A stretch of DNA of 64,000 nucleotides, from NCBI GenBank assembly GCA_044238185.1, contig JBIIDV010000004.1, positions 415 to 64,414 of the forward strand, given 5' to 3'. The notes below the pieces were generated by a model. It worked only from the letters and a program-made list of their open reading frames with translations. It was not told the DNA's origin and ran no database searches. Origin of the DNA: Prochlorococcaceae cyanobacterium (GTDB taxonomy: Bacteria > Cyanobacteriota > Cyanobacteriia > PCC-6307 > Cyanobiaceae). The position numbers were made by a program, and so were the translations under genes. This document shows positions 31,317 to 62,901 of the stretch, in pieces (position 1 is the first letter of the stretch; each line of letters opens with the position of its first letter).

Positions 31317-32357
31317 GTGAATCTTGGGCATTGGGTGGCCGCACGCTCCTTGGTTCTGCATGTGGGCATCCACAAGACGGCCTCCACCTATATCCAGCAC
31401 CGTCTTAAGGGGAATCAGCCTTTCCTCCGCCAACAGCGCCTGCTCTATCCCCGCCGCCGCTGCGACCACCTCGAGCTGGTGAAAGCCCTGCGCAATGGTG
31501 ATCTGCTGCCCTGGGAGCGGCTGTTGAGGAAGGCCGAACGTGAGCAATGCCGTGCACTCGTGTCGGCTGAAATCCTCTCCTTGGTGCTTCCTCAGCGCAG
31601 CCGCATTGGATCCGGCACGGTGTTGAGCAACCTGCTTGAGCTGCTCAACCGCATGGGTGTGGCACTGGAACTGGTTGCCTTCGTACGTGATCAGCCCAAC
31701 TACCTCAATTCGCGTTACACCCAGCTGCTGAAGCGTTTCTATCTCTCGATCCCTTTCCCCCGCTACGTGCAGCAGACCCTGCGTGCAGGAGGCGAGAGCA
31801 GTTGTGACTACCTGGAGTTGTTCGGTGAGGCTCTCGACCGGCCCGAAGTGAACTGCCACTTCCTGCCGTTTCGTTCCGGTGAAGCCGACCCCTGTGAGCG
31901 GTTGTTGCAGGCGGTGGGCCTGTCTGATCTCGCGGATCTGCAACCACTTGAGCAGCAGCCCAATATGCAGCCAGGTTGGCAGGCCATCTGGATTGCCCAG
32001 CGCATCGCGGGTCAGTTGGCTGAGCACCATCCTCAGGCTTGGAGCAGCAGCTCCTGCAAGACGAGAATCCGCGAGCAATTGGAGAGGCTGGCTGTGGAGC
32101 AGGGGTGGCCGGCTGAACCCTTTCAAGGTCTGAATGAGGAGTTGCTGATCAAAATTGAGCAGCGCTATGGCGACAGCAACGACCGCTTTGCCCAGCGTGT
32201 GTGGGGCTGCAGCTGGCGTGAGCTGTTTCCCCGTCCCACGCCCCCCGCCATGCCGATGCGGCCGCGCAGTCGCGAGGAGCGCAACGCGTTGTTGGCCCTG
32301 GTCGATCAACTGATCGCCGCGGGGATGAGGGACACCTCGCCGGTTGATCAGGTCTGA
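31317..32357 (+). CDS. sulfotransferase-fold P-loop protein, paralog 1 of 4
   Basis: LVLHVGIHKTASTYIQHRL is a 5'-PSB-like P-loop. VAFVRDQPNYLNSRY is 3'-PB-like (RDxxxxxxS). The same architecture recurs at 34505, 44501(-) and 45427(-). It has a GTG start. Confidence 0.5.
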   Translation: MNLGHWVAARSLVLHVGIHKTASTYIQHRLKGNQPFLRQQRLLYPRRRCDHLELVKALRNGDLLPWERLLRKAEREQCRALVSAEILSLVLPQRSRIGSGTVLSNLLELLNRMGVALELVAFVRDQPNYLNSRYTQLLKRFYLSIPFPRYVQQTLRAGGESSCDYLELFGEALDRPEVNCHFLPFRSGEADPCERLLQAVGLSDLADLQPLEQQPNMQPGWQAIWIAQRIAGQLAEHHPQAWSSSSCKTRIREQLERLAVEQGWPAEPFQGLNEELLIKIEQRYGDSNDRFAQRVWGCSWRELFPRPTPPAMPMRPRSREERNALLALVDQLIAAGMRDTSPVDQV

Positions 32358-33562
32358 GTGAGCAGCGCAAAGGGAATCCGCTGGAAGGCGATGCCGTCGT
32401 GGCGGCGATCCCCCCTGCCATCCAGTTGCTGCCGGTTGCGTTGGCGCTCCTCGCCACGAACCTTGTGATAACTGGCACCAGATTCCACCAACAGCGCCAC
32501 ATCGCCATTGCTAAAGCGGGCTAGATCGCTGTAGCCGCTGAAACTGCCTGCCCCCTGGCCGTAGCTGAAGCCCCGGCTCCAGCTGCGGCCATTGTCGCGG
32601 CTCAAGCGCAGCCGGCCGTTGGTGCGGTGCTGCGGATCCGCTGGGTTGGCAAACAGCACCATGGCTTGACGATCGCCAGTGAAGGCATAGGTGAGCAGGC
32701 TGGCCTGACAGCCGTTGGCCGGCTCAATCAGCTGGGGGTCCGGTCCGCTGCTTGCCATCGTTTCGCCGCCGTCACGGCTGATGCTCACAACCCGCTGGCC
32801 GCCGCTGCGGCTGTTCAGCATCAAGCTGCCATCGCCAAGTTCCGTTACCGCGCACTCGCTGGTGGGACGGAAGCCGGCGATGGCGCCCACCCGCCAGCTG
32901 TCGCCTCCGTCGTCGGAGAGCAACAGGTGGGACGCACTGCCTCTGCCTGGAAGGCTGTGGCGCGCCGGCACCACAATCCGGCCTGCGGCGGGAGCCAGTT
33001 GTTTCACAATGCCGTGCCCTGGTCCGATGCCTGTCCAGGGTTTCCATCCGGGAAGCCGAACCTGATCGGTGATGTCGCGGGAGGGAGCCCAGCTCAGCCC
33101 GTCATTGTCGGAATGGGTGATCCGCAGAAAGCGCTTGCCCCGCTGGCTTTCCCGCTCCACGGAGGCATTCCACATCCACAGCAGCAGGATCCGCCCGCTT
33201 GGCAGTACAACTGGTAAGGGAATCTTGCAGGGGTTGGGCCCGTCGTTGGCGATCACCTGCAGCGGCCCCCAACTGCGGCCGCCATCGCTGGAGCGGCGCA
33301 GCAGCACGTCGATGTTGCCCTCGTCGCGGCAATTGTCCACCCGGCCACCGCAGAAGGCCAGCACCGTGCCCTGCCTGCTCACCGCCAGTCCAGGGGTGCG
33401 GTAGCAGCTGTAGCCCTCTTCCCCAGATGCAAAAGGCAGGCTGATCAGGCGCCCGTCCGTGTTGGCGGGACGGCTCTGGGCCATCTCCTCCCTGGCCAGC
33501 AGACTGACCAAGGCTGTGCAGGTGAGGCCGGTGAGCACCGGACGGCGGTGGAGCTCACGCAT
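32348..33562 (-). CDS. BNR/Asp-box repeat exo-alpha-sialidase-like (GH33-like) protein with Tat-like signal
   Basis: I trimmed this to MRELHRRPVLTGLTCTALVSLLA (RR signal). It has the YRTP motif (equivalent to F/YRIP). Five Asp-box-like repeats are present: SSDGGRSWG, SDNDGLSWA, SDDGGDSWR, SRDGGETM and SRDNGRSWS. Confidence 0.7.
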   Translation of the reverse strand: MRELHRRPVLTGLTCTALVSLLAREEMAQSRPANTDGRLISLPFASGEEGYSCYRTPGLAVSRQGTVLAFCGGRVDNCRDEGNIDVLLRRSSDGGRSWGPLQVIANDGPNPCKIPLPVVLPSGRILLLWMWNASVERESQRGKRFLRITHSDNDGLSWAPSRDITDQVRLPGWKPWTGIGPGHGIVKQLAPAAGRIVVPARHSLPGRGSASHLLLSDDGGDSWRVGAIAGFRPTSECAVTELGDGSLMLNSRSGGQRVVSISRDGGETMASSGPDPQLIEPANGCQASLLTYAFTGDRQAMVLFANPADPQHRTNGRLRLSRDNGRSWSRGFSYGQGAGSFSGYSDLARFSNGDVALLVESGASYHKVRGEERQRNRQQLDGRGDRRHDGIAFQRIPFALLTQT

Positions 33563-33632
33563 GGCTGGACCCCTGGGGATGCCACGGTAAGTTGGCCGTT
33601 GAGGTTTCGGGTTGTCAGGATTGGCCATGGTT

Positions 33633-33662
33633 CTGCGCTCAGCCCATCTGCGCTCAGCCCAT
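33633..33662. repeat. perfect tandem 15-bp direct repeat (CTGCGCTCAGCCCAT x2) in a divergent intergenic region
   Basis: I read this directly: 33633..33647 equals 33648..33662. It lies between the trimmed sialidase start (33562, -) and the KpsT-like start (33681, +). Confidence 0.8.
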
Positions 33663-33680
33663 GGGCTTTCAACCAATCCA

Positions 33681-34499
33681 ATGTCCCCCAGCCCATCGCC
33701 TCAGCCTGTGCTGGAACTGAAGGCGGCATCCAAGGATGTGGTGGAGGGGGTGAATCATCGTTACCCCGCATTTCGCAATCTTTCGCTCTCCGTGTTTCCG
33801 GGTGAGCGTCTGGCTGTTTTTGCCGTTAATGGGTCAGAGGCAAAAGCCCTGATTTCCTGTCTTAGTGGAGTCGAACCGCTTGATGGAGGAACGTTGGAGC
33901 AGATGGCTTCTGTCTCCTGGCCCGTAGGTGCGAACGAAGCATTCTCTAACAAGTTAAGCGGATATATTAATGCACGATTTGCGGCTGAAATCTACAGTTC
34001 TCCGGCTCAGATTGAGGATGATCTTGTTCTCATCAGGGAGCTTGCTGGGGTGACCGATGAGCTCTTCCATCGTCCCCTCTCTTCATGGCCTGGTCACTCT
34101 AAAGATGCCCTCAAACTAGCTGTTTCTCTGGCCTTTCAGTTTGATGTCATTATGGTCGGACGTATCAGTAATTGGGATCATCGTGGAGTGCACCCACGAG
34201 CCGTTCGCATGCGTCGGCTTTTTGAGGAGCGAATTTCGGGCCGTACATTGGTGATGTGCGGCAATGGCCAAAGCCAATTGGCACTCGACTATTGTCACGA
34301 GGGGCTTGTATTGGTGGGAGGCTCTTTGATCTACCGAGGAGATCCGGAAGTTTGCCTTGAATTGGTTAAAGAAGAATCAAAGATACAGAAGCAAAAGCGG
34401 CGTACCAGGGTCAACGCCCGAATCGCCAGTCTGTTGGAAGCCGCCCAGCAGGATGTTGATGATCAGGACGCCTCATTTGTTACAGATGAAGTTATCTGA
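33681..34499 (+). CDS. KpsT-like ABC nucleotide-binding-domain protein with degenerate ATPase motifs
   Basis: The sequence is collinear with capsule-export KpsT: ...PGERLAVFAVNGSEAKALISCLSGVEPLDGGTL...VSWPVGANEAFSNKLSG...AFQFDVIMVGRISNWD...TLVMCGNG. However, Walker A (GxxGxGKST) reads NGSEAKA. The signature reads WPGHS. Walker B-Glu (hhhhDE) reads VIMVGR. The H-loop reads CGNG. The start could be 33612 or 33681. Confidence 0.7.
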   Translation: MSPSPSPQPVLELKAASKDVVEGVNHRYPAFRNLSLSVFPGERLAVFAVNGSEAKALISCLSGVEPLDGGTLEQMASVSWPVGANEAFSNKLSGYINARFAAEIYSSPAQIEDDLVLIRELAGVTDELFHRPLSSWPGHSKDALKLAVSLAFQFDVIMVGRISNWDHRGVHPRAVRMRRLFEERISGRTLVMCGNGQSQLALDYCHEGLVLVGGSLIYRGDPEVCLELVKEESKIQKQKRRTRVNARIASLLEAAQQDVDDQDASFVTDEVI

Positions 34500-34504
34500 T
34501 CGGC

Positions 34505-35572
34505 ATGGTAATTGGGAAGTCTAACCGACGCCTGCTTGTAATTCATGCGGGCACACATAAGACAGCCAGTTCTTACATCCAGAGTTGCATGGCTGCCAAT
34601 CGGTCCCTGCTTCGTAGTTCTGGTGTCTTGGTTGAATATCCGGGTTTGCCAGCACAGAAACACAAGCCGTTGGCCGACGCACTTGCAAAGCGCCAATGGG
34701 AATACTGGCAAAAATTCCTAAGGAATCTTCCTAGAGAAGAACCGCTTGTTCTGATTAGTGCTGAGCAATTTACCCAAACTCTAGCAAGACGAAGGATTCA
34801 TCGGCAGCTGATTGCTTTGCTGGAGAGAGAGGGTTTTCAGTTGGCCGTGGCAGTATTTCTTCGAGATCAAGCTGACTATATCAATTCCCGTTTTGTCCAC
34901 TCGGTGAGACGCTTTTATCACTCTCAGGACTTTGAGGACTATGTGCAAGAACAGCTAGCCAAAAGAAAGCATATTTACAATTATAATCATTTATTTTATG
35001 ATCTGACAACTAATTCATCTATCCGAACATTTTTCCTGCCCTATGGGCGTGAGCTCGGCGATCCGTTTGAACGTCTTCTATCCGCCCTTGGTGTTCGGCC
35101 TCCCATCCAGGGATGGCAGGCAGCTGATCCCAGCAAGGCCAATGTCCAGCCTGGTTCTAGGGCCGTTTGGCTAGCGCAGCAAATCACCAAACGATTGCAT
35201 CACCTTGGCATCGACAGTCGTTCATTGGTGAATACTGGTGACGTGGTACGCCGTATTGCCATGGGTGAAGGTTGGCAGGATGATCGCTATTGTGGATTTA
35301 GTCAGGACTCGGCATCAGTAGTAGCAGCACACTACTCGCGCAGCAATCATCGTTTTGCCCGCAGAGTTTGGGGTTGTGAGTGGCGACAAGTGGTGGCTGA
35401 GGTAGGGATGCGCCGCTCTGTGTATTTTCCTCCAGGCCCTGGCCCTGAGCGAGAGCATTTGGATAATCTTGTGAATTTTGGTCTGCGTGACCTTGCCCAA
35501 GAGAATCTACGGCTGCGCTTGACCTTGTGGAGACGCAGTGCGCTTAGCATGATCCCTGTCAACAGAGAATAA
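34505..35572 (+). CDS. sulfotransferase-fold P-loop protein, paralog 2 of 4
   Basis: LLVIHAGTHKTASSYIQSCM, LISAEQF and AVFLRDQADYINSRF are present. It is inserted between the KpsT-like and KpsM genes. Confidence 0.5.
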   Translation: MVIGKSNRRLLVIHAGTHKTASSYIQSCMAANRSLLRSSGVLVEYPGLPAQKHKPLADALAKRQWEYWQKFLRNLPREEPLVLISAEQFTQTLARRRIHRQLIALLEREGFQLAVAVFLRDQADYINSRFVHSVRRFYHSQDFEDYVQEQLAKRKHIYNYNHLFYDLTTNSSIRTFFLPYGRELGDPFERLLSALGVRPPIQGWQAADPSKANVQPGSRAVWLAQQITKRLHHLGIDSRSLVNTGDVVRRIAMGEGWQDDRYCGFSQDSASVVAAHYSRSNHRFARRVWGCEWRQVVAEVGMRRSVYFPPGPGPEREHLDNLVNFGLRDLAQENLRLRLTLWRRSALSMIPVNRE

Positions 35573-35575
35573 CGT

Positions 35576-36418
35576 ATGCCCCGGAGAACTCCTCAGTCTA
35601 TTTTGGCGCAGCTCTTGCTGCAATTACGGGTTGTTTCCGCCTTAGCTAGGCGAGAGATGCATCTGCGCGCTGCCAAAGGAACTTTTGGTCTGATCGGAGT
35701 GTTCGTTGAGCCGCTTGCCCTGATTGGGACATTTCTGGCGCTGCGGATTCTCCTGCGCGGTGCTGGTGATGGTACTTATATGAACTTGGTACTTTGGTTG
35801 GCGATGGGTTTTGTGCCATTCTTTATGTTCGCTGATATTGCTATTAAGGCTATTGGCGGCGTTGAGAAGAGCAGTGAGTTGTATTTCTATAGGCGACTGA
35901 GGCCGCTGGATTCATTGATGGGCAATGCGTTATTGCTTGCCCAGATCTTTGGACTGCTGTTGTTGCTTTTTGTTTTGGTCACGGCTTTGTGGGAGTGGCG
36001 TTTCCCAATCGCCGACATTGGCCGTGCAATATTTATCTTCATTGGCATTGCAGTGCTGGGTTTTGGAATAGGTTTGGCAACCCTTGTGATTGGTCATCGC
36101 CTGCCAATTCTTGCCTGGATGATGAAAATGTTTTTGCGTCGCATTCTTCTTTGGACCTCATGCATATTCTTCCCGATAAGTATTATACCCGACGTTTTTA
36201 GGCCTTGGATTCTCTGGAATCCCATCGCTCACGGTGTTGAGCTTCTCCGCTTGGCTGCCAATCCTTACTATCCAGTTCCCGGAGTGAGTGCTGTGTACTT
36301 CTGGGTATGGGTGATCGGGTCGGTTGGCTTCGGCATGTTTGTGTATGGAAATAACGAGGAGTTGCTTTTTGCGGTTGATAAGATCTCTGGGGACAGCGAT
36401 AATGACGATGACGTGTGA
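35576..36418 (+). CDS. kpsM: capsule-type ABC-2 transporter permease
   Basis: 280-aa polytopic ORF collinear with E. coli KpsM as I recall it, including ...ARREMHLRAAKGTFGL...EPL... and the C-terminal LWNPIAHGVELLRLA (compare LWNPLVHVVELSREA). Confidence 0.8.
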   Translation: MPRRTPQSILAQLLLQLRVVSALARREMHLRAAKGTFGLIGVFVEPLALIGTFLALRILLRGAGDGTYMNLVLWLAMGFVPFFMFADIAIKAIGGVEKSSELYFYRRLRPLDSLMGNALLLAQIFGLLLLLFVLVTALWEWRFPIADIGRAIFIFIGIAVLGFGIGLATLVIGHRLPILAWMMKMFLRRILLWTSCIFFPISIIPDVFRPWILWNPIAHGVELLRLAANPYYPVPGVSAVYFWVWVIGSVGFGMFVYGNNEELLFAVDKISGDSDNDDDV

Positions 36419-36524
36419 TTTCTGGCTCTTCCGGAATTCGGGTTGCAAGCTGTTTTAGGGTGATATTGAAATTATTTTGCATAGATCCCGATGCTGCTGT
36501 TAGGATTTCAACAGTTCAGACGCC

Positions 36525-37946
36525 TTGAAGTTGGTTCAGCCGCTCTCGCCACGCTCTAGATCTCGACTGTTTCCGGGGCTGGAGACTGGTTCAAAGCGAG
36601 TAGGCCGGATCGGGGCGCGCGGGGGGTCGGGTGACTCAGGCAGAGGATTTGGAACGGTGGTGCCATTGCAGAGATGGATTGGCGGTGTGACCCGTCGAGC
36701 TGGTTCTCTGCTCAGCTCAGCGCGTGCAAGGTCGGACGAGGCCACATCCACTTTGGCCATTGAGAGCACCCTTGGAGAGGAGGATGTTTCGAGCACTCCC
36801 TATCCTGGTTCGATTACGGGCCTTGGCTTAAGGCAGAGGTTGCGAGATCCACTGAAGCCGATTGTTCGTATCCCCTTACCTCTTGTTCTGGCTGGTTTAG
36901 TCGCTCTCGGGTCAGCCATTTACTTCTTTAACATCGGCCGCAATCGTTACCAAGTCAATTCCAGCTTCATTGTGAGGCTCCCTGAGACGCCGCCGTCGAC
37001 GGGCTCCAGTCTTCTGGGAAATGTTCCGGCGGGCCCCACGATGCTTGGCTCGCTGGAGGACGGTCGCTTCCTTGCTGTCTACCTCACGTCTCCTGAGGTC
37101 ATGAAGCGCGTCTTCCTGACCCTGGAGCCTGAGAAAGCATGGGCACGATCTGGGCGAGATCCATTTGCAGGAATCAAGCCTGCTGCAAACGTTGACCAGC
37201 AACTCGAGTTCTTCAGGCGTCAAGTTTTTGTGATTCCTCAAGATCTCACGGGTGTTATTAATTTAGCAACTGTAGGCCTGGCCCCCGAGCCGGCTTATCG
37301 CTTAAATCAGTTGTTGCTGCAGGAGGCTGAATCTTTCCTGAACCGAATCAATAGCGAAATCAGTACGACCCAGCAGCAGTTTGCTGAACAGGAGGTTCAG
37401 CGAGCCCGCCAGCGGCTTGACCAGGCTTCCCAGGCTTTTAATGCCTTTAAAAACGAAATCGGAGAGCTTAATCCTGCCCAAACGGCTGCTGGTACAAGCA
37501 CTTATATCACCGCGCTGGAAAGTCGGTTGGTTGAGCTTAAGGTGGAAGAAGCAAGCCTGAAGCGACAATTCAAGGACTACGGCAGCCCTGAAGTTGCTTA
37601 TGTGACTGATCAGGTGAGAGAGCTGGAGCGGCAGATTGAAGAGGAGCGCACTGATCTTGTGAACCCTGATGGCCGCGACCTCAATCGACTTGTGGCTGAA
37701 GGTTCGAAACTGGAAACCGAAGTTGCGCTGGCTACTGAGGCCATGAAGTCTGCAATTACCGCGGCCGATAATAGTCGTCAACGCAGTCAGCAACAGGTTA
37801 AATTCCTGGTCCGTCTTGCAGAACCTCAGATCCCTGAGCTGCAATATTTTGACTGGCGCTGGAAAGGTTTTCTCGCCACCCTTGGCGTTATTGTTGTCGC
37901 CTGGGGTATTGGATCGTTTGTGCTCGGTGTTGTGGATCGCCGCTAA
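36525..37946 (+). CDS. kpsE: KpsE/CtrB-type polysaccharide export inner-membrane (PCP-3) protein
   Basis: It has an N-terminal TM (IPLPLVLAGLVALGSAIYFF). RNRYQVNSSFIV follows, then SLEDGRFLAVYLTSPEVM. The coiled-coil core is FAEQEVQRARQRLDQASQAFNAFK (compare KpsE FAETEMEKARQRLDASKAEL). It ends in a C-terminal TM (FLATLGVIVVAWGIGSFVLGVV). The TTG start at 36525 gives an unusually long N-terminal tail of about 115 aa, so the start is uncertain. Confidence 0.75.
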   Translation: MKLVQPLSPRSRSRLFPGLETGSKRVGRIGARGGSGDSGRGFGTVVPLQRWIGGVTRRAGSLLSSARARSDEATSTLAIESTLGEEDVSSTPYPGSITGLGLRQRLRDPLKPIVRIPLPLVLAGLVALGSAIYFFNIGRNRYQVNSSFIVRLPETPPSTGSSLLGNVPAGPTMLGSLEDGRFLAVYLTSPEVMKRVFLTLEPEKAWARSGRDPFAGIKPAANVDQQLEFFRRQVFVIPQDLTGVINLATVGLAPEPAYRLNQLLLQEAESFLNRINSEISTTQQQFAEQEVQRARQRLDQASQAFNAFKNEIGELNPAQTAAGTSTYITALESRLVELKVEEASLKRQFKDYGSPEVAYVTDQVRELERQIEEERTDLVNPDGRDLNRLVAEGSKLETEVALATEAMKSAITAADNSRQRSQQQVKFLVRLAEPQIPELQYFDWRWKGFLATLGVIVVAWGIGSFVLGVVDRR

Positions 37947-37968
37947 TCACAGCTGATTTTCGGTCTGG

Positions 37969-39465: not shown

Positions 39466-39490
39466 ACTTCCGCTGACGACAGCACAGGGC

Positions 39491-40093
39491 ATGCCGAAGG
39501 CCACACGCAAGTCCGCGCCAGTGGCAACATCTGGCTCAGCCCGTCGATGGCACCTCGCGGCAGTGCTGCTCTCCCCATTCAGGAGTTTTGATTCCTTGTG
39601 GCGCAGGGGTGGGAAGAAGGCCTCCCGCCGATCGAAACCAGTGAAGCCAGCTGTGTTGCAGGGACTGGGTCAGAAGCGAACGCTTGCACAGTGGAAGGAG
39701 AGTCGCCGCCGCATCACCGCTGAGGTGAAGGCCCACCTCGATGAGCAGCAGCCGGTGCCTGCCATCAAAAAGCTCACCCGTGCCCTGTTGGAGGATCCCC
39801 AGCACCCTGCCTATCAGGAGCTGCTTCGGAAAGCTGTGGAGCAGCGTCGTCTGCGGCGCCTCAAGGCGGGCCGCAAGGATGCCTGGGCTGAACTCCCGGT
39901 GGAGATCCGGCAGGACGCCCTGCAGCTGGAGGCCTTCACCGCCTACGTGGATGAACTGGAGCAGTTGTTCGATCGAGCGGGCATTCCACCTCTGCGTGCG
40001 CCAGCCCCGCCCGACCAGCTCCAGGCTCCGAAGCGGCGCGCCAAGCCAGGGCCTGAGTCCCAAGCGCTCAAGTCCGAAACCCCTGAGCCCTGA
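39491..40093 (+). CDS. hypothetical basic/charged protein
   Basis: 200-aa ORF, Lys/Arg-rich (…RRGGKKASRRSKPVKP…RRLRRLKAGRKD…). Codon usage looks plausible but I recognise no motif. Confidence 0.35.
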   Translation: MPKATRKSAPVATSGSARRWHLAAVLLSPFRSFDSLWRRGGKKASRRSKPVKPAVLQGLGQKRTLAQWKESRRRITAEVKAHLDEQQPVPAIKKLTRALLEDPQHPAYQELLRKAVEQRRLRRLKAGRKDAWAELPVEIRQDALQLEAFTAYVDELEQLFDRAGIPPLRAPAPPDQLQAPKRRAKPGPESQALKSETPEP

Positions 40094-40112
40094 AACCCAC
40101 CTTGATTCGGGT

Positions 40113-41024: not shown

Positions 41025-41070
41025 GGATGCAATGGCTTGCCCACCTATCCTCGCGGTTGGCCCGGATGCC

Positions 41071-46539: not shown

Positions 46540-46567
46540 GTCCTGCTTTTTTGCCACTGATGGGTCC

Positions 46568-49451: not shown

Positions 49452-49563
49452 TTATGACGAGCAATAAGCAATCATTAATCTTTAAAATTCAGAGCCTTAG
49501 TGCTGAGTGTTATCCTACCCTGTTGTGACATGCAAGTCTGAGTGGAGCGGTTTATGATTTGGG

Positions 49564-52177: not shown

Positions 52178-52180
52178 CTA

Positions 52181-55618: not shown

Positions 55619-56359
55619 GTGACGTTCTGGTTCACCCCATTCCCGCTCTCATCCTCCTTGGATGCCAAGCTGCACTCCGCTGGTTTTCAACAGCACGTTG
55701 GCTTGCTGTCGACCCTGCCCCCCGGGAGTGTGCTGCTGTATTCAGCTCCCCATGAGGCTTTGGAAGCCCTGCGGGGGCGTGATCCCCTTGTTCCTGGGCC
55801 GGAGCAGCTGAGGGAGCATTACGAAGCAGTGCTTCAGGTTGCATCGGGCCATCGTCTGGTGTCCAGCTGGCGTTTGCAGCAGCTCTGCCCCCAAGAGATG
55901 GCCGCCTGGGTTGCGGGGCATTTGCAACCGTCCATCGCGTCCCATCCATCAGACAGCCACTCGTCGCAGCCGATCCAGGCTGAGGCCTGGCCGAGGGTCA
56001 CTCCCCTCACAGCGCTGGTCACCACAGCGCTGTTGCAGCAGGAACCGGCATGCCTGGACGCCTACCTGATGCTGGAAGCACAGTCCGAGCGCTTCAGTAC
56101 CCCGGCCGATGCGGGCTATGGCCCCCGCCTTGCAGGCGCTGTTGAGCTGGATCCGCTTCTCGACCAATGGTGGCTGGCAGAGCCCAACAGTGACCTCACC
56201 GTGCTTCAGCTCCAGCAGGTTGAAGAAGAGCTGTTAACGGTGTTTCTTGCCAATCGCCAACACCTGGAGATGCTGGCTCAGGCGCGTCGCCAGATCCGCC
56301 ATCTGCTGGGCTTGGTCCAGCGCCAGTTTGTGTTGCTCAGCAGGTGTGTGCTCCCATGA
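55619..56359 (+). CDS. hypothetical protein, paralog A (unknown N-domain + C-terminal coiled coil)
   Basis: 246-aa ORF in a GC-rich region. It shares LVTTALLQQEPACLDAYLMLEAQS with ALLALELLRREPRLAAHYMALEQH in the next ORF. The C-terminus is heptad-like (LQLQQVEEELLTVFLANRQHLEMLAQARRQI). Confidence 0.45.
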   Translation: MTFWFTPFPLSSSLDAKLHSAGFQQHVGLLSTLPPGSVLLYSAPHEALEALRGRDPLVPGPEQLREHYEAVLQVASGHRLVSSWRLQQLCPQEMAAWVAGHLQPSIASHPSDSHSSQPIQAEAWPRVTPLTALVTTALLQQEPACLDAYLMLEAQSERFSTPADAGYGPRLAGAVELDPLLDQWWLAEPNSDLTVLQLQQVEEELLTVFLANRQHLEMLAQARRQIRHLLGLVQRQFVLLSRCVLP

Positions 56360-57204
56360 CCCCGACCCCTCCCCCGGTGAGTGTGCAGCTCTGGGCCCCT
56401 GGTGTTGATGCCTCGCTGTTGGTGGCTGGCCTGCGCCAGGCGGGTCTCACGGTGCGGGAAGCCCCCCCTGAGTCGGATGTACCGCCTGAGTTGCCCCTCT
56501 TGGTGGGCTATGTCGATCCTCTTGGTTGCTGCCAGCAGCAGGATGTGGAGCAGGCCGTTGCCGCCACCGCTGCGCTGGTGGAGGGCTTGCCCCGTTTGCT
56601 GGCCCCCTCGCGACCCTGTCGCTTGCTGAACCTGGGATGTCTCTGCATACCAGCTGTCGTGGCTTGGTGTGTGCAGTCCACGCTGTCCCCTGAGCACGTG
56701 TTTCCCCATTGTTTTCCCGAGCCGGGGCCCCTGGATGCCCTGCTTGCCCTGGAGCTCTTGCGCCGCGAACCGCGTTTGGCGGCTCATTACATGGCACTGG
56801 AGCAGCACCCCTTGGCCGCTCGCCAGGATCAGCGCGCCATCGATGCCCACCATGTGGAGCGTTATCAGTGGGCCTGCCGCTGGGAGTCGCTCGTGCAGGC
56901 CCGTGAGCAACACAACCTGCTGCAGCGCGACATCTGTCAGCTGGCAGAGCAGCTTGAGCCCCTGCACGCCAATCGCCTCACCTGTCTGGACCTCCAGGCA
57001 GAGATCCAGCGGCTTTCATCTCGGTTGCTGCAGGCTGAGCACCTGAAGGAGCGCTGCGGAGATCTTGAACTCAGCCTGCAGGCCCAACAGCTGGATCTGG
57101 AGGTCTTGGGCCGGCGGCTCAGCCTGTTGGAGGGCTTGTTGACTGCGGCCAGCGGTGCAAGTCAAAGCCTGCAGGTTCGCCTGGCTCAGGTGCTTGCTGC
57201 TTGA
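56356..57204 (+). CDS. hypothetical protein, paralog B (unknown N-domain + long C-terminal coiled coil)
   Basis: The ATG at 56356 overlaps the upstream stop (ATGA). The C-terminal ~110 aa are Leu/Gln/Glu-rich heptads (…LQAEIQRLSSRLLQAEHLKERCGDLELSLQAQQLDLEVLGRRLSLLEGLL…). Confidence 0.45.
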   Translation: MTPTPPPVSVQLWAPGVDASLLVAGLRQAGLTVREAPPESDVPPELPLLVGYVDPLGCCQQQDVEQAVAATAALVEGLPRLLAPSRPCRLLNLGCLCIPAVVAWCVQSTLSPEHVFPHCFPEPGPLDALLALELLRREPRLAAHYMALEQHPLAARQDQRAIDAHHVERYQWACRWESLVQAREQHNLLQRDICQLAEQLEPLHANRLTCLDLQAEIQRLSSRLLQAEHLKERCGDLELSLQAQQLDLEVLGRRLSLLEGLLTAASGASQSLQVRLAQVLAA

Positions 57205-57260: not shown

Positions 57261-57301
57261 AAGTTGTGTTAAAGTGAAATGGATAGTTGTTTAGTTCTTT
57301 C

Positions 57302-58075
57302 GTGAAAGCCGTAGTTCTTGCGGGCGGCCGGGGCACTCGCCTTGCGGAAGAAACAGTGGTGCGCCCTAAGCCTCTGGTTGAGATTGGGGGCATGCCGATT
57401 CTCTGGCATATCTTCAAGATCTACAGCTCATTTGGCATTAACGACTTTATCGTTTGCTGCGGCTACAAGGGCTATATGATTAAGGAGTATTTTGCCAACT
57501 ATTTCTTGCATACCAGTGATGTCACGTTCCATATGGATGTGGGTAATCACATGGAGGTCCACCAGCGCACCACGGAACCCTGGAAGGTGACATTGATTGA
57601 TACCGGTGACTCAACCGAGACCGGGGGGCGCCTTGGTCGCGTGCGCTCGTACCTCGGCGACGAGCCTTTTTGCTTCACCTATGGCGACGGCGTGGCCGAT
57701 GTGGACATGACGGCCCTGATTGCCCACCATCGTGAGCAGGGTCTGCAGGCCACCCTCACCGCCGTTCAGCCGCCTGGGCGCTATGGCGCTCTTCACCTCG
57801 ATGGCGATCGGGTTGGCAACTTCCAGGAGAAGGCTGATGGCGAACAGTCCTGGATCAACGGTGGTTTTCTGGTGCTCGAGCCATCGGTGTGTGATCTGAT
57901 CCACTCCGATACCTGTCTGTTTGAGGCGGATGTGTTGTCGGAGCTGGCCCGTCGTGGTCAGCTGGCGGCCTACCGGCACCAGGGCTTCTGGCAGTCGATG
58001 GATACCTTGCGCGAGCGAACGCGCCTGGAAGCTCTTTGGGAGAGTGGTCAGGCGCCCTGGAAGCTCTGGAGTTGA
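57302..58075 (+). CDS. rfbF: glucose-1-phosphate cytidylyltransferase
   Basis: The GTG at 57302 gives (M)[66 protein letters not shown]... at 257 aa. This is highly characteristic of RfbF/DdhA. Confidence 0.9.
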
Positions 58076-59187
58076 TGCCCCCCGCCGTCAATCGTCCGGA
58101 TCCGGCCTTCTGGAACGGTCGGCGCGTGTTGGTCACCGGCCACACCGGTTTCAAGGGCACTTGGCTCACCCTCTGGCTGTTGCGGATGGGCGCCCGGGTC
58201 ACCGGGGTGGCACTCGATCCGGAAACCAGCCCCAGCTTCCACGCTTCCCTCGATCTCACCGGTTCCGACCAGCCTGGCGAGCTCAGGGATCATCGCCTCG
58301 ACATCCGCGATGCCATGGCCCTGGCAGAGCTGGTGGCCTCGGCTGATCCCGAGGTGGTGTTTCATCTGGCGGCCCAGCCCCTGGTGCGCCGCAGCTACCG
58401 CGATCCGCTCGGCACCTGGGCGATCAACGTGCAGGGCAGCCTGCACCTGCTCGAGGCCCTCCGGCCCCTGGCTCATCCCTGTGCCGTGGTGATGGTGACC
58501 ACCGACAAGGTGTACGAGAACCGCGAGTGGTGTTACGGCTACCGGGAGACCGATCGCCTGGGCGGCCACGACCCCTACAGCGCCAGCAAGGCTGCGGCCG
58601 AGCTGGCGGTGGCCTCCTGGCAGGCCAGTTTCTGTGGTTCGTCTCCTCACCAGACCCCCCATCTGGCCATTGCCACGGCCCGGGCCGGCAACGTGATCGG
58701 TGGCGGCGACTGGGCCGCTGATCGGATCGTGCCCGATGCCATGCGCTCCTGCGCTGACGGGGCGTCACTCCCCTTGCGCAACCCCCGCGCCACCAGACCC
58801 TGGCAGCACGTGCTGGAGCCTCTGGCGGGCTACCTGCAACTGGCTGAGGCCCTCAGGTCTGAACCGTCTGCGTTCTCCCAGTCCTGGAATTTCGGGCCCC
58901 ATCCGGAGGCCAATCGATCTGTGCAGGACCTGGTGGAGACCCTCCACCAGCACTGGCCAGGTGTATGGCATGACCTCAGCGATTCCAATGCTCCCCATGA
59001 AGCAGGCCTGCTCCATCTGGTGATCGACAAGGCCCGCCACACCCTGGGTTGGCAGCCCCGCTGGGATTTCGCCACCACGGTGGAGAGAACCGCCTGCTGG
59101 TATCGCCGGGTGGCGGAGGGTGCCCCGGCTCTCGATTGCTGCCTGGCCGACCTGGATCTCTATACCGCCAGTACTGGGGAGCGCTGA
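58075..59187 (+). CDS. rfbG: CDP-glucose 4,6-dehydratase
   Basis: The ATG at 58075 shares 1 nt with the rfbF stop. FWNGRRVLVTGHTGFKGTWLTLWL, VFHLAAQPLVRRSY, TTDKVYEN and YSASKAAAEL (YxxxK) are present. Confidence 0.9.
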   Translation: MPPAVNRPDPAFWNGRRVLVTGHTGFKGTWLTLWLLRMGARVTGVALDPETSPSFHASLDLTGSDQPGELRDHRLDIRDAMALAELVASADPEVVFHLAAQPLVRRSYRDPLGTWAINVQGSLHLLEALRPLAHPCAVVMVTTDKVYENREWCYGYRETDRLGGHDPYSASKAAAELAVASWQASFCGSSPHQTPHLAIATARAGNVIGGGDWAADRIVPDAMRSCADGASLPLRNPRATRPWQHVLEPLAGYLQLAEALRSEPSAFSQSWNFGPHPEANRSVQDLVETLHQHWPGVWHDLSDSNAPHEAGLLHLVIDKARHTLGWQPRWDFATTVERTACWYRRVAEGAPALDCCLADLDLYTASTGER

Positions 59188-59720: not shown

Positions 59721-61013
59721 TCAGGGCGCTGAAAACAGGGCCTGCTGCTCGGCGTAGAGCCGGTGGGCCAGCTCCTGGCTGGGGGCGTCCACATCGCTCC
59801 AGTGGATCGGCAGGTCCTTGGCGATGGGGCGCTTGAGCCGGCAGCCCTCCGCCAGGCCCTCGGGCAGCAATCCCTCCGCACGCACCACGCTGGCCTGTTC
59901 AGCCTGGCCATAGGTCATGTAGCGGCCGAAGGAATCGAGGGTTTCGCCGGCCAGCAGGTCGCGCTTGGCGATCGCCACCACCTCCACCACCGGTGCCCCG
60001 ATGGGCTGGCCCACGGCATCGCCGAACAGCACCGCCCGGGCCACGCTCATCGGTGCTTCGAGGTAACACAAGTGATAAGGCTGGTAGAAGCTGTAGAGCG
60101 GCCCGGTGCCCAGCTTGTAGAGCTCCAGGTAGGGCACGTGCCGCGCGTCGGGCATCTCCGCCAGGCAGAACACCCCCGGGGAGGGGCGCGCCCCGATCAC
60201 GAAATCCACCACCCCGCCCAGCCCCCGCAGCTCCTCCAGGTCATAGGTGCCCGTGAGCTCATCCACGTGCCCCCGGTGTTCGCGCCGGCTCATCCCCCGC
60301 TGCGTCACGCTGAAGCCGGTGGCGTTGGCCACGATCGCCTGCTCGAAGTTCACCTTGGAACCGTCGGCAAACGAGGTCACCATGGTCACGTCCTGGTTCC
60401 ACTGCTCGGCAAAACCCTGCTGGGTGGCGGGGGTGCGGCTTTCGTCCTGCAGGCCCTTGATGTTGCCCAGCACCCTGGGCACGAGGCCCAGCCCCTCCAC
60501 AAACCGCTTGAGGTTCATCTGCACGCCCGGCTGGTCGCCGTCGCTGCAGGTCAGCAAGGTTCCTGCCGCCCGGGCCTTGGCCTGCAGGATCGGGCCGATC
60601 GTGGCGTCCACCTCGGCATTCATCAGCACCAGCGGTTTGCCCTGCTCGATCGCCGCCAGGGCCACCAGGGCGCCGTGGTTCACCGCGCCTGTCATGTCCA
60701 CCAGGCAGTCGATGCCTGCTGATTGGGCCAGCAGGGTCGGATCGTCGGTGATCGCCGGCCGATTGGCCGCGATGGCTTGATCGAGGGCTGTCAAGTTCTC
60801 GACCACAACAGCCCCATCGCGCTGGGCAAAGTCGTAGGCGTCAGCAGCGCGCTGCAGGGTGCGGTTGGCGATCGCCGCCACCTCCATGCCGGGCACCAGG
60901 GCTGACACCTGGGCCACGAAGCCCCTGGCTATGGCTCCTGCCCCGATCAGGCCCACACGCACCGGGCGACCTTCGCTCTCGCGTCGGCGCAGGGCCGTGT
61001 CGAGCAGGATCAT
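59721..61013 (-). CDS. NAD(P)-binding dehydrogenase with C-terminal SAF domain (COG4091-like), tandem copy 2
   Basis: VRVGLIGAGAIARG is a Rossmann motif. The body resembles homoserine dehydrogenase. The C-terminal VVAIAKRDLLAGETLD is SAF-like. Its start overlaps the stop of copy 1 (ATGA). Confidence 0.6.
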   Translation of the reverse strand: MILLDTALRRRESEGRPVRVGLIGAGAIARGFVAQVSALVPGMEVAAIANRTLQRAADAYDFAQRDGAVVVENLTALDQAIAANRPAITDDPTLLAQSAGIDCLVDMTGAVNHGALVALAAIEQGKPLVLMNAEVDATIGPILQAKARAAGTLLTCSDGDQPGVQMNLKRFVEGLGLVPRVLGNIKGLQDESRTPATQQGFAEQWNQDVTMVTSFADGSKVNFEQAIVANATGFSVTQRGMSRREHRGHVDELTGTYDLEELRGLGGVVDFVIGARPSPGVFCLAEMPDARHVPYLELYKLGTGPLYSFYQPYHLCYLEAPMSVARAVLFGDAVGQPIGAPVVEVVAIAKRDLLAGETLDSFGRYMTYGQAEQASVVRAEGLLPEGLAEGCRLKRPIAKDLPIHWSDVDAPSQELAHRLYAEQQALFSAP

Positions 61014-62323
61014 CCAAAGCCTTTCAGTGGCGAAACGCTACCCCACATGCTCTGCTGCTGGGTGTAGAGCTGATGGGCCAGCTCATGGCTTGGGGCTTCC
61101 ACATCGCTCCAGCGGATAGGGGTGTCCTTGGCGATGGCCCGCCGCAGCAGACAACCCTCCACCAGACCCTCGGGTATGAGCCCCTCGGCCCGCACCACAG
61201 CGGCCTTTTCCGCCTGCCCGTAGGTCATGTAGCGGCCGAAGGAATCGAGGGTTTCGCCGGCCTGCAGATCGCGCTTGGCAATCGCCACCACCTCCACCAC
61301 CGGTGGTCCGATCGCCTGGCCCACCGCATCGCCGAACAACAGGGCCCGGGCCAGGCTCATGGGCGCATCGAGGTGACAGAGGTGATACGGCTCGTAGAAG
61401 CAGTAGAGCGGGCCATCACCCAGGCCCTTGGCCGCCAGCATGGCCGCATGACGGGTGTCAGCCAATTCGGCCAGGCAGTACACACCTGGAGCCGGATTAG
61501 CCCCCACCACGAAGTCCACCACGCCGCCCAGCTGCCGAAGTTCGGCCAGGTTGTAGTGGCTGGTGAGGTCTTCCACGGGGCCCCGGAACTCCATCCGTGA
61601 GGTGCCGCGGCGCAGCACCGTGAAGCCGGTGGCGTTGGCCACGATGCACTGCTCGAAGTTCACCTTGGAGCCGTCGGCAAACGAGGTCACCATGGTCACG
61701 TCCTGGTTCCAGCGCTCGGCGAAGCCTTGCTGCGTGGTGGGGGTGCGGTACTCGTCCTGCAGGCCCTTGATGTTGCCCAACACCCGTGGAATCAAGCCCA
61801 TGCCCTTCACCTTGCGCCAGAGGTTGAGCTGCACCCCGGGCTGATCCCCGTCGCAGCAGGTGAGCAGCACCCCCGCCTGGCGGGCTTTCTCATGCAGGAT
61901 CGGCCCGATCGTGGCATCCACCTCCGCATTCATCAGCACCAGGGGCTTGCCGTGCTCAATCGCGGACAGCACGATGCCGGCACCATGGTTCACCGAGCCC
62001 GTGATGTCGATCAGGGCATCGATGCCTGCCGAGCGGGCCAGCAGGCTGGGGTCGGTGGTGATGGCGGCTCGCCCCTCAGCCATCGCCTGGTCGAGGCCAG
62101 CCAGGCTGTCGGCGGCCAAGGCCCCGCAGCGGCCGGCGAAGCTGTAGGCATCGGCGGCGCGCTGGAGGGTGCGATTGGCGATCGCCACCACGTCCATGCC
62201 GGGCACCTGGTTGGTGATCAGGGCCACCAGGCCGCGCGCCATGGCCCCTGCGCCGATCACGCCGATCCGCAGTGGGTGACCCGCCTGTTCGCGCTGCCGA
62301 AGGGCCGTGTCAACCAGGATCAT
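61010..62323 (-). CDS. NAD(P)-binding dehydrogenase with C-terminal SAF domain (COG4091-like), tandem copy 1
   Basis: I trimmed this to MILVDTALRQREQAGHPLRIGVIGAGAMARG. It is collinear with the neighbouring copy, for example the identical VTMVTSFADGSKVNFEQ. Nucleotides 61621..61645 and 61671..61711 are identical to 60311..60335 and 60361..60401. Confidence 0.6.
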   Translation of the reverse strand: MILVDTALRQREQAGHPLRIGVIGAGAMARGLVALITNQVPGMDVVAIANRTLQRAADAYSFAGRCGALAADSLAGLDQAMAEGRAAITTDPSLLARSAGIDALIDITGSVNHGAGIVLSAIEHGKPLVLMNAEVDATIGPILHEKARQAGVLLTCCDGDQPGVQLNLWRKVKGMGLIPRVLGNIKGLQDEYRTPTTQQGFAERWNQDVTMVTSFADGSKVNFEQCIVANATGFTVLRRGTSRMEFRGPVEDLTSHYNLAELRQLGGVVDFVVGANPAPGVYCLAELADTRHAAMLAAKGLGDGPLYCFYEPYHLCHLDAPMSLARALLFGDAVGQAIGPPVVEVVAIAKRDLQAGETLDSFGRYMTYGQAEKAAVVRAEGLIPEGLVEGCLLRRAIAKDTPIRWSDVEAPSHELAHQLYTQQQSMWGSVSPLKGFG

Positions 62324-62901
62324 CTCGGTTGCCCATCCGCTGGGGCCATGCGGCTGCGGATCGTCGCCAAATTTTCGTTGAGCAGTGGCCAGCTGGCATC
62401 CTTGGCTGAGATTGCGCTCACAGGCCTGGGCCATTGGATGGCGAGTTGCGGGTCATCCCAGCGCAGGCCGAATTCGGCATCCGGGGCGTAGAAGGCGCTC
62501 ACCAGGTAAAGGATTTCGGTGGCATCGCTCTGGGTCTGCAGCGCGTGGCAGCAGCGTTCGGGAATCAGCAGGCTTTGCTGGTTGGTGGCACTGAGCTCCA
62601 CCATCTGCCAGTGCAGGAATGTGGGCGACTCAGGGCGGAGGTCAACCACCACGTCCACCAGGGATCCCTGCACGCAGCGCAGCAGCTTCTGCTCCCCATG
62701 GGGTGGGTACTGGCCGTGGAAGCCCCGCAGGGTACCGGCTTGGGCATTGAACGAGCGGTTGGCTTGCACCACCTGAAAATCAATGCCATGGTTGGCAAAT
62801 TCCCGCTGGCAAAACCCCCTGGCAAACCAACCACGCTCATCGCTCATTGGTTCAACGCCGACCAGGAAAGATCCCGCGATCTTTAGGGGTTCGAAGAGCA
62901 T
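62320..62901 (-). CDS. dTDP/CDP-4-dehydro-6-deoxyhexose 3,5-epimerase family (RmlC-like cupin)
   Basis: I trimmed this to MLFEPLKIAGSFLVGVEPMSDERGWFARGF...NRSFNAQAGTLRGFHGQ...EQKLLRCVQGSLVDVVVDLR...SLLIPERCCHALQTQSD...YLVSAFYAPDAEFGLRWDDP. These are RmlC signature blocks. Confidence 0.8.
   Translation of the reverse strand: MLFEPLKIAGSFLVGVEPMSDERGWFARGFCQREFANHGIDFQVVQANRSFNAQAGTLRGFHGQYPPHGEQKLLRCVQGSLVDVVVDLRPESPTFLHWQMVELSATNQQSLLIPERCCHALQTQSDATEILYLVSAFYAPDAEFGLRWDDPQLAIQWPRPVSAISAKDASWPLLNENLATIRSRMAPADGQPR

Follow-up and report, generated by a model that had tools for sequence, protein, structure and literature searches.

A conserved Kps-type surface-glycan locus with a degenerate KpsT homologue and sulfotransferase-like genes in freshwater picocyanobacteria

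Introduction

Picocyanobacteria are the dominant primary producers of many lakes and oceans. We herein analyse a cluster of glycan genes from one of them, a Prochlorococcaceae cyanobacterium (GenBank assembly GCA_044238185.1, contig JBIIDV010000004.1). The cluster occupies positions 31,317 to 62,901 of a 64,000-nucleotide stretch of this contig; the whole 64-kb stretch is called the window, and all coordinates refer to it. It brings together homologues of the three subunits of the capsule exporter KpsT-KpsM-KpsE, glycosyltransferases, sugar-nucleotide genes and six open reading frames (ORFs) with the hallmarks of sulfotransferases. Its most unusual feature is the KpsT homologue, written KpsT* below, a predicted pseudo-ATPase in which every ATP-site motif has been replaced. 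This pseudo-ATPase, an altered glycolipid canyon in KpsM and a putative sulfotransferase-like superfamily are what is new here. We regard the interval as a conserved surface-polysaccharide assembly and export cluster of freshwater picocyanobacteria, whose product is probably a sulfated glycan.

A Kps-type export module with a degenerate ATPase subunit

The export module comprises three genes:

33612..34499, plus strand: KpsT*, KpsT-homologous predicted pseudo-ATPase with a conserved C-terminal extension (PDB 8TSH/8TSI KpsT, E=3e-13, residue alignment)
35576..36418, plus strand: KpsM-type ABC-2 permease with an altered glycolipid canyon (NCBIfam KpsM, E=4e-28, below the equivalog cut-off; six transmembrane segments)
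36525..37946, plus strand: KpsE-type polysaccharide co-polymerase of class 3 (PCP-3), start codon uncertain (TIGR01010, E=1e-45, below cut-off; N- and C-terminal transmembrane segments)

The best or only PDB matches of these proteins are chains A, C and E of one complex, KpsT-KpsM-KpsE 8TSH. ORF 33612 is a true KpsT homologue by its match to chain A (E=3e-13), chain C is the sole match of KpsM (E=2e-16), and KpsE matches chain E (E=1e-37); subunit for subunit, these alignments establish homology to the solved capsule exporter. A preliminary description of the window had named this trio a Kps-type ATP-binding cassette (ABC) exporter. The homology of all three subunits upholds that assignment, but it had been overlooked that the KpsT homologue lacks every ATP-site motif.

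The Pfam ABC_tran family does not match ORF 33612, because the motifs of the ATP site are replaced. In a residue alignment to canonical KpsT, Walker A changes from GRNGAGKST to AVNGSEAKA, the signature motif from YSSGM to WPGHS, and Walker B with its catalytic glutamate from LIDE to MVGR, while the H-loop histidine is absent. All four elements by which a catalytically competent KpsT would be recognised (Walker A, signature, Walker B Glu, H-loop) are replaced, and KpsT* is predicted to be unable to bind or hydrolyse ATP through canonical motifs. In classical KpsT, E151Q on its own has been reported to abolish KpsMT-dependent secretion (PMC11041684).

The same ATP-site losses recur across 16 aligned members of the KpsT* family, and 100 homologues (39-90% identity; picocyanobacterial where named) share the motif losses, with ABC_tran matching 0 of the 100. 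When a KpsT* profile was searched against 1.84 billion representatives, the top clusters at 50% identity (about 15; E 1e-122 to 3e-33) all lacked Walker A, and proteins with the canonical G(R/P)NGAGK(S/T) emerged only below about 131 bits. A joint alignment gave the same picture: each degenerate subgroup (24-34% identity to the KpsT* of the window) has lost the four motifs, and the four canonical KpsTs included retain all of them. Against its nearest orthologue, KpsT* has a ratio of nonsynonymous to synonymous substitution rates (omega) of 0.08. With losses common to the whole family and an omega this low, the degeneration appears to be clade-wide and maintained under strong purifying selection. 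The possibility that KpsT* is a decaying pseudogene was considered and ruled out on these two grounds, the conservation extending over more than 100 clusters.

Two further features are conserved in the family, the C-terminal extension and an invariant SVSWPxG in the Q-loop region. In ABC transporters the Q-loop region faces the permease. The invariant motif suggests to us that docking of KpsT* on KpsM has been retained.

To place the locus among its relatives, we compared 18 loci from distinct GTDB species, anchored on the 833-residue glycosyltransferase family 2 (GT2) protein of the cluster, together with two loci found by exact-protein look-ups; individual loci are cited by labels such as L018. 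KpsT* is the homologue of a nucleotide-binding domain (NBD) that is genetically linked to KpsM in nearly every locus, and the two genes are directly adjacent in L018, L022, L023 and L025. An NBD with a canonical Walker A was found neither in the 64-kb window nor in loci L001-L027.

These observations bear on the main rival explanation, to which we give a low probability: that this is a normal ATP-driven Kps exporter, for which a gene elsewhere in the genome supplies a canonical KpsT or Wzt. That protein would hydrolyse ATP, as a heterodimer partner or alternative NBD, and KpsT* would modulate it in a regulatory or assembly role. There is ample precedent for heterodimeric ABC exporters in which one site is degenerate. 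Moreover, a Kps cluster of the classical type, distinct from this locus and containing kpsT, kpsD2, kpsC and kpsS, occurs in some picocyanobacteria (Dore et al., 2020, supplement; PMC7522525). However, since KpsT* has lost both Walker A and the signature, both composite sites of such a heterodimer would be defective, not one. Its linkage to KpsM, the invariant docking region and the lack of a canonical NBD within 10 kb in any of L001-L027 also speak against this explanation.

An altered KpsM canyon and missing Kps partners

Kuklewicz and Zimmer found that Arg35, Trp45, Arg89 and Arg94 of the KpsM canyon cannot be substituted without loss of export (PMC11041684). In the window KpsM, Arg35 is kept, and the other three positions are changed (Trp45 to Gly, Arg89 to Ala, Arg94 to Lys). 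The changes are general among picocyanobacterial KpsM proteins: position 45 is Gly in 18 of 18, position 89 is Ala or Ser in 16 of 18, and position 94 is Lys in 16 of 18. Three of the four residues essential for export of the glycolipid that joins 3-deoxy-D-manno-octulosonic acid (Kdo) to phosphatidylglycerol are thus absent. Likewise, domains typical of KpsD (Poly_export) and of KpsC/KpsS (Capsule_synth) were found neither among the ORFs scanned nor in the gene tables of the related loci examined. Taken together, the altered canyon and the lack of KpsC, KpsS and KpsD domains in the locus argue against the Kdo-phosphatidylglycerol glycolipid of group 2 capsules as the substrate. Domains of a Wzx/Wzy-type system with its Wzc-type PCP-2a (Polysacc_synt, Wzy_C, AAA_31-type) were not detected among the ORFs scanned either.

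The same features could be read as evidence for a product other than capsule or extracellular polysaccharide (EPS), namely a lipid-linked oligosaccharide destined for an O-antigen-like lipopolysaccharide side chain or a surface-protein glycan, with KpsM and KpsT* acting in a flippase-like manner. It could be argued in favour of this view that KpsC/S and KpsD are absent and the Kdo-glycolipid residues changed, that type-V ABC folds also export O-antigen and teichoic acid (PMC11041684), and that KpsT* also matches Wzt/TagH-type NBDs in the PDB at about 1e-7. We nevertheless consider it very unlikely, because KpsE, as a PCP-3 protein a hallmark of capsule-type trans-envelope export, is strongly conserved, because all three subunits have Kps proteins, and not Wzm/Wzt, as their best homologues, and because a WaaL-type ligase domain was not found in the ORFs scanned.

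Sulfotransferase-like proteins

The ORFs under discussion are listed below; the accessory cassette, as opposed to the core, is delimited in the following section.

31317..32357, plus strand: sulfotransferase-like protein A, core, family A2, no Pfam family (motifs KTAST and RDQPNYLNS)
34505..35572, plus strand: sulfotransferase-like protein B, core, family A2, between KpsT* and KpsM (AlphaFold2 model; invariant K19, E87, R120)
44501..45424, minus strand: sulfotransferase-like protein, accessory cassette (motifs KTGST...REPLNAALS; Sulfotransfer_3, E=0.043)
45427..46593, minus strand: sulfotransferase-like protein, accessory cassette, family A3 (AlphaFold2 model and Foldseek; invariant K31, E106, R135, S143)
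49564..50466, minus strand: sulfotransferase, cassette (Pfam Sulfotransfer_1, 30.8 bits, cut-off 22)
50465..52177, plus strand: 570-residue protein without Pfam, NCBIfam or PDB match
52181..53095, minus strand: sulfotransferase, cassette (Pfam Sulfotransfer_1, 28.1 bits, cut-off 22)

All seven had been put forward as sulfotransferase-type in the preliminary description, from motifs read by eye that bind the 5'-phosphosulfate (PSB) and 3'-phosphate (PB) of the sulfate donor 3'-phosphoadenosine 5'-phosphosulfate (PAPS). These motifs are specific, since a strict pair, [KR][ST][GA][ST][ST] followed 50-160 residues on by R[DNE]x6S, occurs in only five of the 134 long ORF segments of the window, all five being candidates from that list. 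Six of the seven are supported. Only 49564 and 52181 pass Pfam Sulfotransfer_1, and 31317, 34505, 44501 and 45427 belong to a putative new superfamily described below. The N-terminus of 50465 was rejected, as its loop GPESSGS has no Lys or Arg and it has no profile link to any sulfotransferase group.

The two core proteins, 31317 and 34505, are paralogues (34% identical, E=2e-49) and make up family A2, for which 38 sequences were aligned; the alignment of family A3, that of 45427, holds 32. Profile-profile comparison with hhalign indicates that A2, A3 and 44501 are mutually homologous (probability 98-99%, E 1e-14 to 1e-18): 44501 is linked to the 45427 family at 99.1% and to A2 at 98.2%, and A2 to the 45427 family at 98.4%. 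It is well supported by these profiles, and by the models discussed below, that 31317, 34505, 44501 and 45427 represent one new, previously unassigned sulfotransferase-like superfamily. Its three families (A2, A3 and the 44501 group) all escape Pfam and NCBIfam.

According to Mistry et al. (2024; PMC11625862), a sulfotransferase is defined by a PSB Lys or Arg, a strand-turn-helix bearing the PB Ser and a base that is His or Glu, where the PB motif is R-x3-D/E-x3-S and the PSB-loop Lys/Arg lies on a strand-loop-helix. In A3, K31, E106, R135 and S143 are invariant and position 139 is Glu or Asp. In A2, K19, E87 and R120 are invariant and D124 is kept in 35 of 38 sequences, with S128 present in only 21 of 38. 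The models place K19 and K31 between strand 1 and helix 1 and the PB positions of both families on the expected strand-turn-helix; E87 and E106 are the candidate catalytic bases. As the PSB Lys/Arg is also present by motif in 44501, 49564 and 52181, alignment assigns defining sulfotransferase positions to six ORFs.

The link to known sulfotransferases is less direct. Single-sequence and profile searches of the PDB with 34505, 44501, 45427 and 50465 returned nothing significant, and hhalign found no link between the Pfam-positive 49564 and 52181 and the A2/A3/44501 superfamily, with the shallow alignments that locus orthologues allow. The connection is therefore carried by motifs, fold and sub-threshold Pfam matches. 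Among A3 members, 14 of 32 match Sulfotransfer_3 below threshold and three each match Sulfotransfer_1 and Sulfotransfer_2; for A2, Sulfotransfer_3 appears weakly in 2 of 38. The model of 45427 (predicted local distance difference test score, pLDDT, 82.5) has human TPST2 and TPST1 as its top Foldseek matches (E=3e-4, probability 1.0), with retinol dehydratase, SULT2A1 and the curacin sulfotransferase domain further down. That of 34505 (pLDDT 92.9) shows a generic P-loop kinase/sulfotransferase-type fold.

An alternative is that 31317, 34505, 44501 and 45427 are P-loop-fold kinases or phosphotransferases acting on a glycan or lipid, so that the core product is unsulfated and only the cassette enzymes 49564 and 52181 sulfate. 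The best Foldseek matches of 34505 are GPN-loop GTPases, zeta toxins, PPK2 and PFKFB kinase domains, none reaching E<=1e-3 in the PDB; PFKFB kinases are interleaved with the sulfotransferases matched by 45427; and the Pfam gathering score is reached by no A2 or A3 member. The loop HxGxxKT(G/A)S(S/T), on the other hand, fits the PSB loop for PAPS (PKSGTT) and not the Walker A consensus GxxxxGK[ST], and it is accompanied by the R-x3-[DE]-x3-S motif on its strand-turn-helix. Since, in addition, the three sulfotransferase families are the three most frequent weak Pfam matches of A3 and TPST1/2 the top structural matches of the 45427 model, we consider the kinase alternative quite unlikely.

Conserved core and inserted cassette

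The locus is real and recurrent and comes from a freshwater picocyanobacterium: a protein identical to its KpsM, with the same neighbours, is found in at least 24 contigs from freshwater-lake metagenomes, and the nearest species-level relatives are Lake Mendota 'Prochlorococcaceae' metagenome-assembled genomes (MAGs) and Cyanobium genomes. Its left anchor is a conserved gene:

30720..31304, plus strand: DUF1997 protein (Pfam PF09366, 38.6 bits), syntenic with the cluster in most related genomes

This gene adjoins the cluster in L006, L008, L011, L013, L018, L022, L023 and L025. At the right end, on the minus strand at about 63.27-64.0 kb, lies the C-terminus of a histidine kinase (HisKA/HATPase-type sequence) that runs past the window. 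The boundaries given earlier, a DUF1997 gene and a sensor kinase, are therefore correct. Upstream in the window are rpoB/C1/C2-sized ORFs, biotin-synthesis genes and further housekeeping genes.

Between these boundaries, the block 31317-44396 is conserved and syntenic in about 16 of the 20 picocyanobacterial species loci, including the complete chromosome of Cyanobium sp. M30B3 (CP073761.1); Cyanobium sp. CH-040 has the locus as well. Deeper lineages have a minimal core, DUF1997-KpsT*-KpsM-KpsE(-GT8) plus 39491-GT1-GT2-43488, which keeps the export genes without the sulfotransferase-like and BNR genes; it follows that sulfation is not intrinsic to the export system. At the same site of the chromosome, a marine relative, L028 (a metagenome contig of 60% GC), has DUF1997-KpsM-KpsE together with two sulfotransferase-like genes. 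KpsT* is not visible in its 17 kb and may lie past the contig end or be absent.

The genes 44501 to 52181, by comparison, occur in only 4 of the 20 loci and at two different positions. In L015 and L026, which lack them, the orthologue of 56344 follows that of 43488 within about 110 bp, and in L024, likewise without the cassette, it comes directly after the GT2 gene. In L019 and L020 the cassette stands on the other side of the glycosyltransferase genes, and the 56344 orthologue again directly follows that of 43488. Given this patchy occurrence, the two positions and the close spacing of 43488 and 56344 in genomes without it, the region at about 44.4-55.6 kb appears to be an inserted, mobile and strain-variable decoration cassette without recognisable mobility genes or border repeats. 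Repeats flanking it are at chance level only, the window contains no tRNA, and no integrase or transposase domain was detected among the ORFs scanned; the lack of tRNA, integrase and transposase had been noted earlier.

The interval had been seen as a single mosaic island of about 31 kb, assembled stepwise by acquisition of AT-rich blocks, and an alignment against related genomes for presence or absence had been proposed. That comparison speaks against a single island, given the syntenic core, and only the cassette is patchy. The alternation of GC-rich and AT-rich blocks is confirmed by windowed values (GC 0.48-0.53 at 34-38 kb and 0.42-0.57 at 44-55 kb against 0.64-0.69 elsewhere; the window is GC-rich, with 0.64-0.75 outside the low-GC blocks). 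Only the region at about 44.4-55.6 kb behaves like an acquired segment, and not 33.7-37.9 kb, the low GC of which is shared by the orthologues; in M30B3 the export genes have 0.52-0.57 against 0.72-0.75 for their neighbours. Because low GC is common to its orthologues, the export block appears to be ancestral and not a recent acquisition. Overall, comparative evidence describes a vertically inherited surface-glycan locus of the Cyanobium/Synechococcus lineage (GTDB 'Prochlorococcaceae') into which a decoration cassette seems to have been inserted.

Several side observations were made during this comparison. In the four export-block genes (33612-37946 and orthologues from L006-L026), GC at third codon positions (GC3) is 0.46-0.54 and synonymous divergence (dS) is saturated in nearly all pairs; in flanking core genes of comparable protein identity, dS is about 0.6-1.8 and GC3 0.62-0.80. 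Allelic exchange, codon-usage constraint or an old foreign origin may be the cause. A 149-kb contig labelled as a Bradyrhizobium ivorense MAG (L012, CALRKN020000008.1) carries the full cyanobacterial core at 61-86% protein identity; the public record has most likely been mis-binned or mislabelled. Outside the studied interval, at 24000-28000, GC is low (0.48-0.51) in a second block. There, 26044-27741 encodes a Caps_synth + PS_pyruv_trans fusion and 25175-25984 a secreted-looking protein without Pfam match, the C-terminus of which, VPGPLPVLGVASAFAWSRRLRRK, resembles a PEP-CTERM sorting signal. In related genomes the SBF-to-helicase interval contains GT2s and a DDE transposase fragment instead (L006), GT2/GT1 and a sulfotransferase-motif ORF (L008) or two sulfotransferase-like genes (marine L028), which suggests another variable hotspot of glycan genes.

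Glycosyltransferases, sugar-nucleotide genes and other members

The remaining genes of the locus are as follows:

32348..33676, minus strand: BNR/GH33-like sialidase-fold protein, probably exported, core (Pfam BNR_2 98.7 bits, BNR_3 53 bits)
37969..39465, plus strand: GT8-like glycosyltransferase, core (Glyco_transf_8 23.6 bits, cut-off 24.3; 61-80% identity in most loci)
39491..40093, plus strand: small basic conserved protein, core, no family (orthologues in nearly all loci)
40113..41072, minus strand: Glyco_trans_1_2 (CgeB-like) glycosyltransferase, core (Pfam PF13524, 51 bits; in all 20 loci)
41023..43524, plus strand: 833-residue protein, N-terminal region of about 600 residues and C-terminal GT2, core (Glycos_transf_2 64 bits, residues 609-738)
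43488..44396, plus strand: GT-A-like protein (DDD motif), 302 residues (weak GT2 match, E=0.007; no NCBIfam family)
46568..48913, minus strand: bifunctional GT2 + GT4 (Glycos_transf_1, C-terminal), cassette (Pfam 87 and 33 bits)
53795..55564, minus strand: GT2 glycosyltransferase, cassette edge (Pfam 57.9 bits)
56344..57204, plus strand: conserved protein (synteny in L015, L019, L020, L024, L026)
57287..59187, plus strand: CDP-glucose module, RfbF + RfbG (TIGR02623 442 bits, TIGR02622 482 bits, above equivalog cut-offs)
59721..62973, minus strand: two tandem DRL_cat+SAF oxidoreductases and an RmlC-like 3,5-epimerase (Pfam; rmlC 142 bits, cut-off 155.75)

Domain searches confirm most of the gene content listed earlier, including KpsM, KpsE, glycosyltransferases, the sialidase-like BNR protein and the cytidine diphosphate (CDP)-hexose module. 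Of the glycosyltransferases named then (GT8, four GT2 domains, GT4 and a CgeB-like enzyme), GT2 in 41023, 46568 and 53795, GT4 and the CgeB-like enzyme are secure; GT8 is just below threshold and the GT2 match of 43488 is weak. The orthologue of 53795 (45-46%) adjoins the cassette genes in L019 and L020. Most conserved in the cluster is the 43488 protein, with 80-91% identity in seven of the eight loci compared and an omega of about 0.09 in most; it may be a key, possibly initiating, transferase. For the 833-residue protein, whole-length identities to the window protein are 70% and 68% (three genomes aligned). Its N-terminal region of about 600 residues (window 41023-42850) is conserved in these three genomes but has no family match, and a scaffold or chain-length role is a guess.

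Transmembrane prediction found no polytopic protein among the glycosyltransferases of the locus. Synthase-dependent export through the 833-residue GT2 protein was rejected on this ground, and the result is consistent with a glycan assembled on a lipid acceptor in the cytoplasm and then exported.

RfbF is a glucose-1-phosphate cytidylyltransferase and RfbG a CDP-glucose 4,6-dehydratase, so that a pathway of this type is encoded beside the cluster. An RfbH-type 3-dehydrase domain did not turn up in the ORFs scanned. The two DRL_cat+SAF paralogues (59721-62434) are 73% identical to each other, and the RmlC-like protein falls just below its cut-off. The BNR protein has a weak NCBIfam neuraminidase match and, as read from its sequence, a YRTP motif, Asp-boxes and an RR-containing hydrophobic N-terminus.

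A proposed assembly and export pathway

We lean, with moderate confidence, towards a Kps-derived but non-classical glycan export system in which KpsT* is a non-catalytic partner, and which likely handles a sulfated glycan. The glycan would be built by the core transferases (the GT8-like and CgeB-like enzymes, the 833-residue GT2 protein and the 43488 protein) and O-sulfated with PAPS made elsewhere in the genome. Cassette enzymes may add further decoration, and a sugar derived from CDP-6-deoxyhexose may be incorporated. The product would then cross the inner membrane through a KpsM dimer within a KpsE cage, be trimmed or processed by the exported BNR/GH33-like protein, and leave through an outer-membrane channel encoded away from the locus. 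In view of the dead ATP site, the altered KpsM canyon and the lack of KpsC/S/D in the locus, KpsT* is proposed to be a structural partner of KpsM, and the substrate anchor to be something other than Kdo-lipid. Translocation would either not be ATP-driven at the KpsT* NBD or be energised by an unlinked component.

A number of points weigh against this reading. The product, its sulfation and its export are predictions from sequence and models. A canonical NBD encoded elsewhere, perhaps in a classical Kps cluster of the kind described above, would restore an ordinary exporter. The deeper lineages keep the export core without sulfotransferase-like and BNR genes. Neither by structure nor by sequence does family A2 significantly match a solved sulfotransferase; its PB serine is replaced by Ala in 17 of 38 sequences, and its best Foldseek matches are P-loop GTPases and kinases. 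Finally, the pathway is incomplete as seen: the window contains no PAPS-synthesis genes (their absence already noted in the preliminary description, with that of KpsC/S and KpsD), no outer-membrane polysaccharide export (OPX) protein and no initiating transferase.

A bolder version, possible but doubtful, is that KpsM-KpsT*-KpsE is a type-V ABC-fold exporter of a polysaccharide or glycolipid that works without ATP hydrolysis, its NBD being a structural clamp that possibly docks the 34505 protein and so couples modification to export. If true, a hydrolysis-free exporter driven by a non-canonical energy input would be ancestral to, and widespread in, the globally abundant picocyanobacteria.

Significance

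A surface-glycan system of this kind would bear on resistance to grazers and phages, and on aggregation, metal binding and sinking. In a survey of Pfam domains, Pereira et al. (2015; PMC4594306) concluded that picocyanobacteria have lost most EPS genes. KpsT*, KpsM, KpsE and most sulfotransferase-like proteins of the present locus are without a Pfam match, so a Pfam-based survey of this kind would miss it, and a conserved, Pfam-invisible surface-glycan system would alter the picture of EPS gene loss.

Since one Walker B mutation is enough to disable the classical system (PMC11041684), a KpsMTE operon that is otherwise intact but strongly conserves a fully degenerate NBD may further be regarded as a natural experiment on what NBDs do beyond hydrolysis. 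For enzyme discovery, the locus defines a putative new sulfotransferase-like superfamily.

Comparison with known systems

The preliminary description had contrasted an ABC-type, sulfotransferase-dense locus with the only cyanobacterial sulfated-EPS locus it knew, and had considered it a different arrangement. The Kps type and the unusual density of sulfotransferase-type genes are supported, but the claim to novelty is weakened, since ABC-type clusters with sulfotransferases in other cyanobacteria had already been noted by Maeda et al. (2021; PMC8205485) and a sulfated ABC-dependent capsule has been described in Vibrio sp. KMM 8419 (PMC11641403). The KpsS of Mesorhizobium loti is a sulfotransferase according to Townsend and Keating (2008), as cited in PMC11625862. 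Our literature search found no paper on a degenerate KpsT or on sulfotransferase clusters in picocyanobacteria. The hypothesis of a sulfated capsule is thus plausible, but less novel than was first claimed.

Closest in architecture is the group 2/3 capsule system KpsMT-KpsE, as solved from Schlegelella thermodepolymerans (PDB 8TSH; PMC11041684). In both systems a KpsT-fold protein, a six-transmembrane KpsM and a PCP-3 KpsE are encoded together, and genes for soluble glycosyltransferases and sugar nucleotides lie in one cluster with those of the exporter. In contrast to that system, the KpsT of the present locus lacks Walker A, signature, Walker B Glu and H-loop, and its KpsM lacks the equivalents of Trp45, Arg89 and Arg94. 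The locus also contains no KpsC, KpsS, KpsD, KpsF or KpsU and has a sulfotransferase-like gene between kpsT* and kpsM.

A picocyanobacterial polysaccharide cluster with kpsT, kpsM and kpsE is also known from marine Synechococcus of clades III, WPC1 and 5.3, where it was predicted from comparative genomics only and includes kpsD2, kpsC and kpsS (Dore et al., 2020; PMC7522525). Identity with this cluster was rejected, as the marine one contains kpsC/S/D2. The marine cluster is classical and confined to few marine clades, whereas the locus described here sits at the helicase-DUF1997 site, has a degenerate KpsT and lacks kpsC/S/D2.

The xss locus for synechan in Synechocystis PCC 6803 (Maeda et al., 2021; PMC8205485) resembles it in being cyanobacterial, in its dedicated sulfotransferases and many glycosyltransferases; the OPX gene of xss is unlinked. 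However, xss is Wzx/Wzy-dependent and plasmid-borne, with two Pfam-recognisable sulfotransferases, whereas the present locus is Kps-type and chromosomal, with most of its sulfotransferase-like genes outside Pfam. The capsule locus of Vibrio sp. KMM 8419 (PMC11641403) likewise combines kps-type export genes with polysaccharide sulfotransferases, but it has an ATP-hydrolysing kpsT, kpsD, kpsS and cysNDC for PAPS, none of which is present here.

ABC exporters with a degenerate nucleotide-binding site share with the present system the retention of an NBD despite the loss of consensus residues. In heterodimeric type I exporters one composite site is catalytic, and the degenerate NBD still binds ATP. 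KpsT* differs from these in that every motif is gone, in an NBD that is presumably homodimeric.

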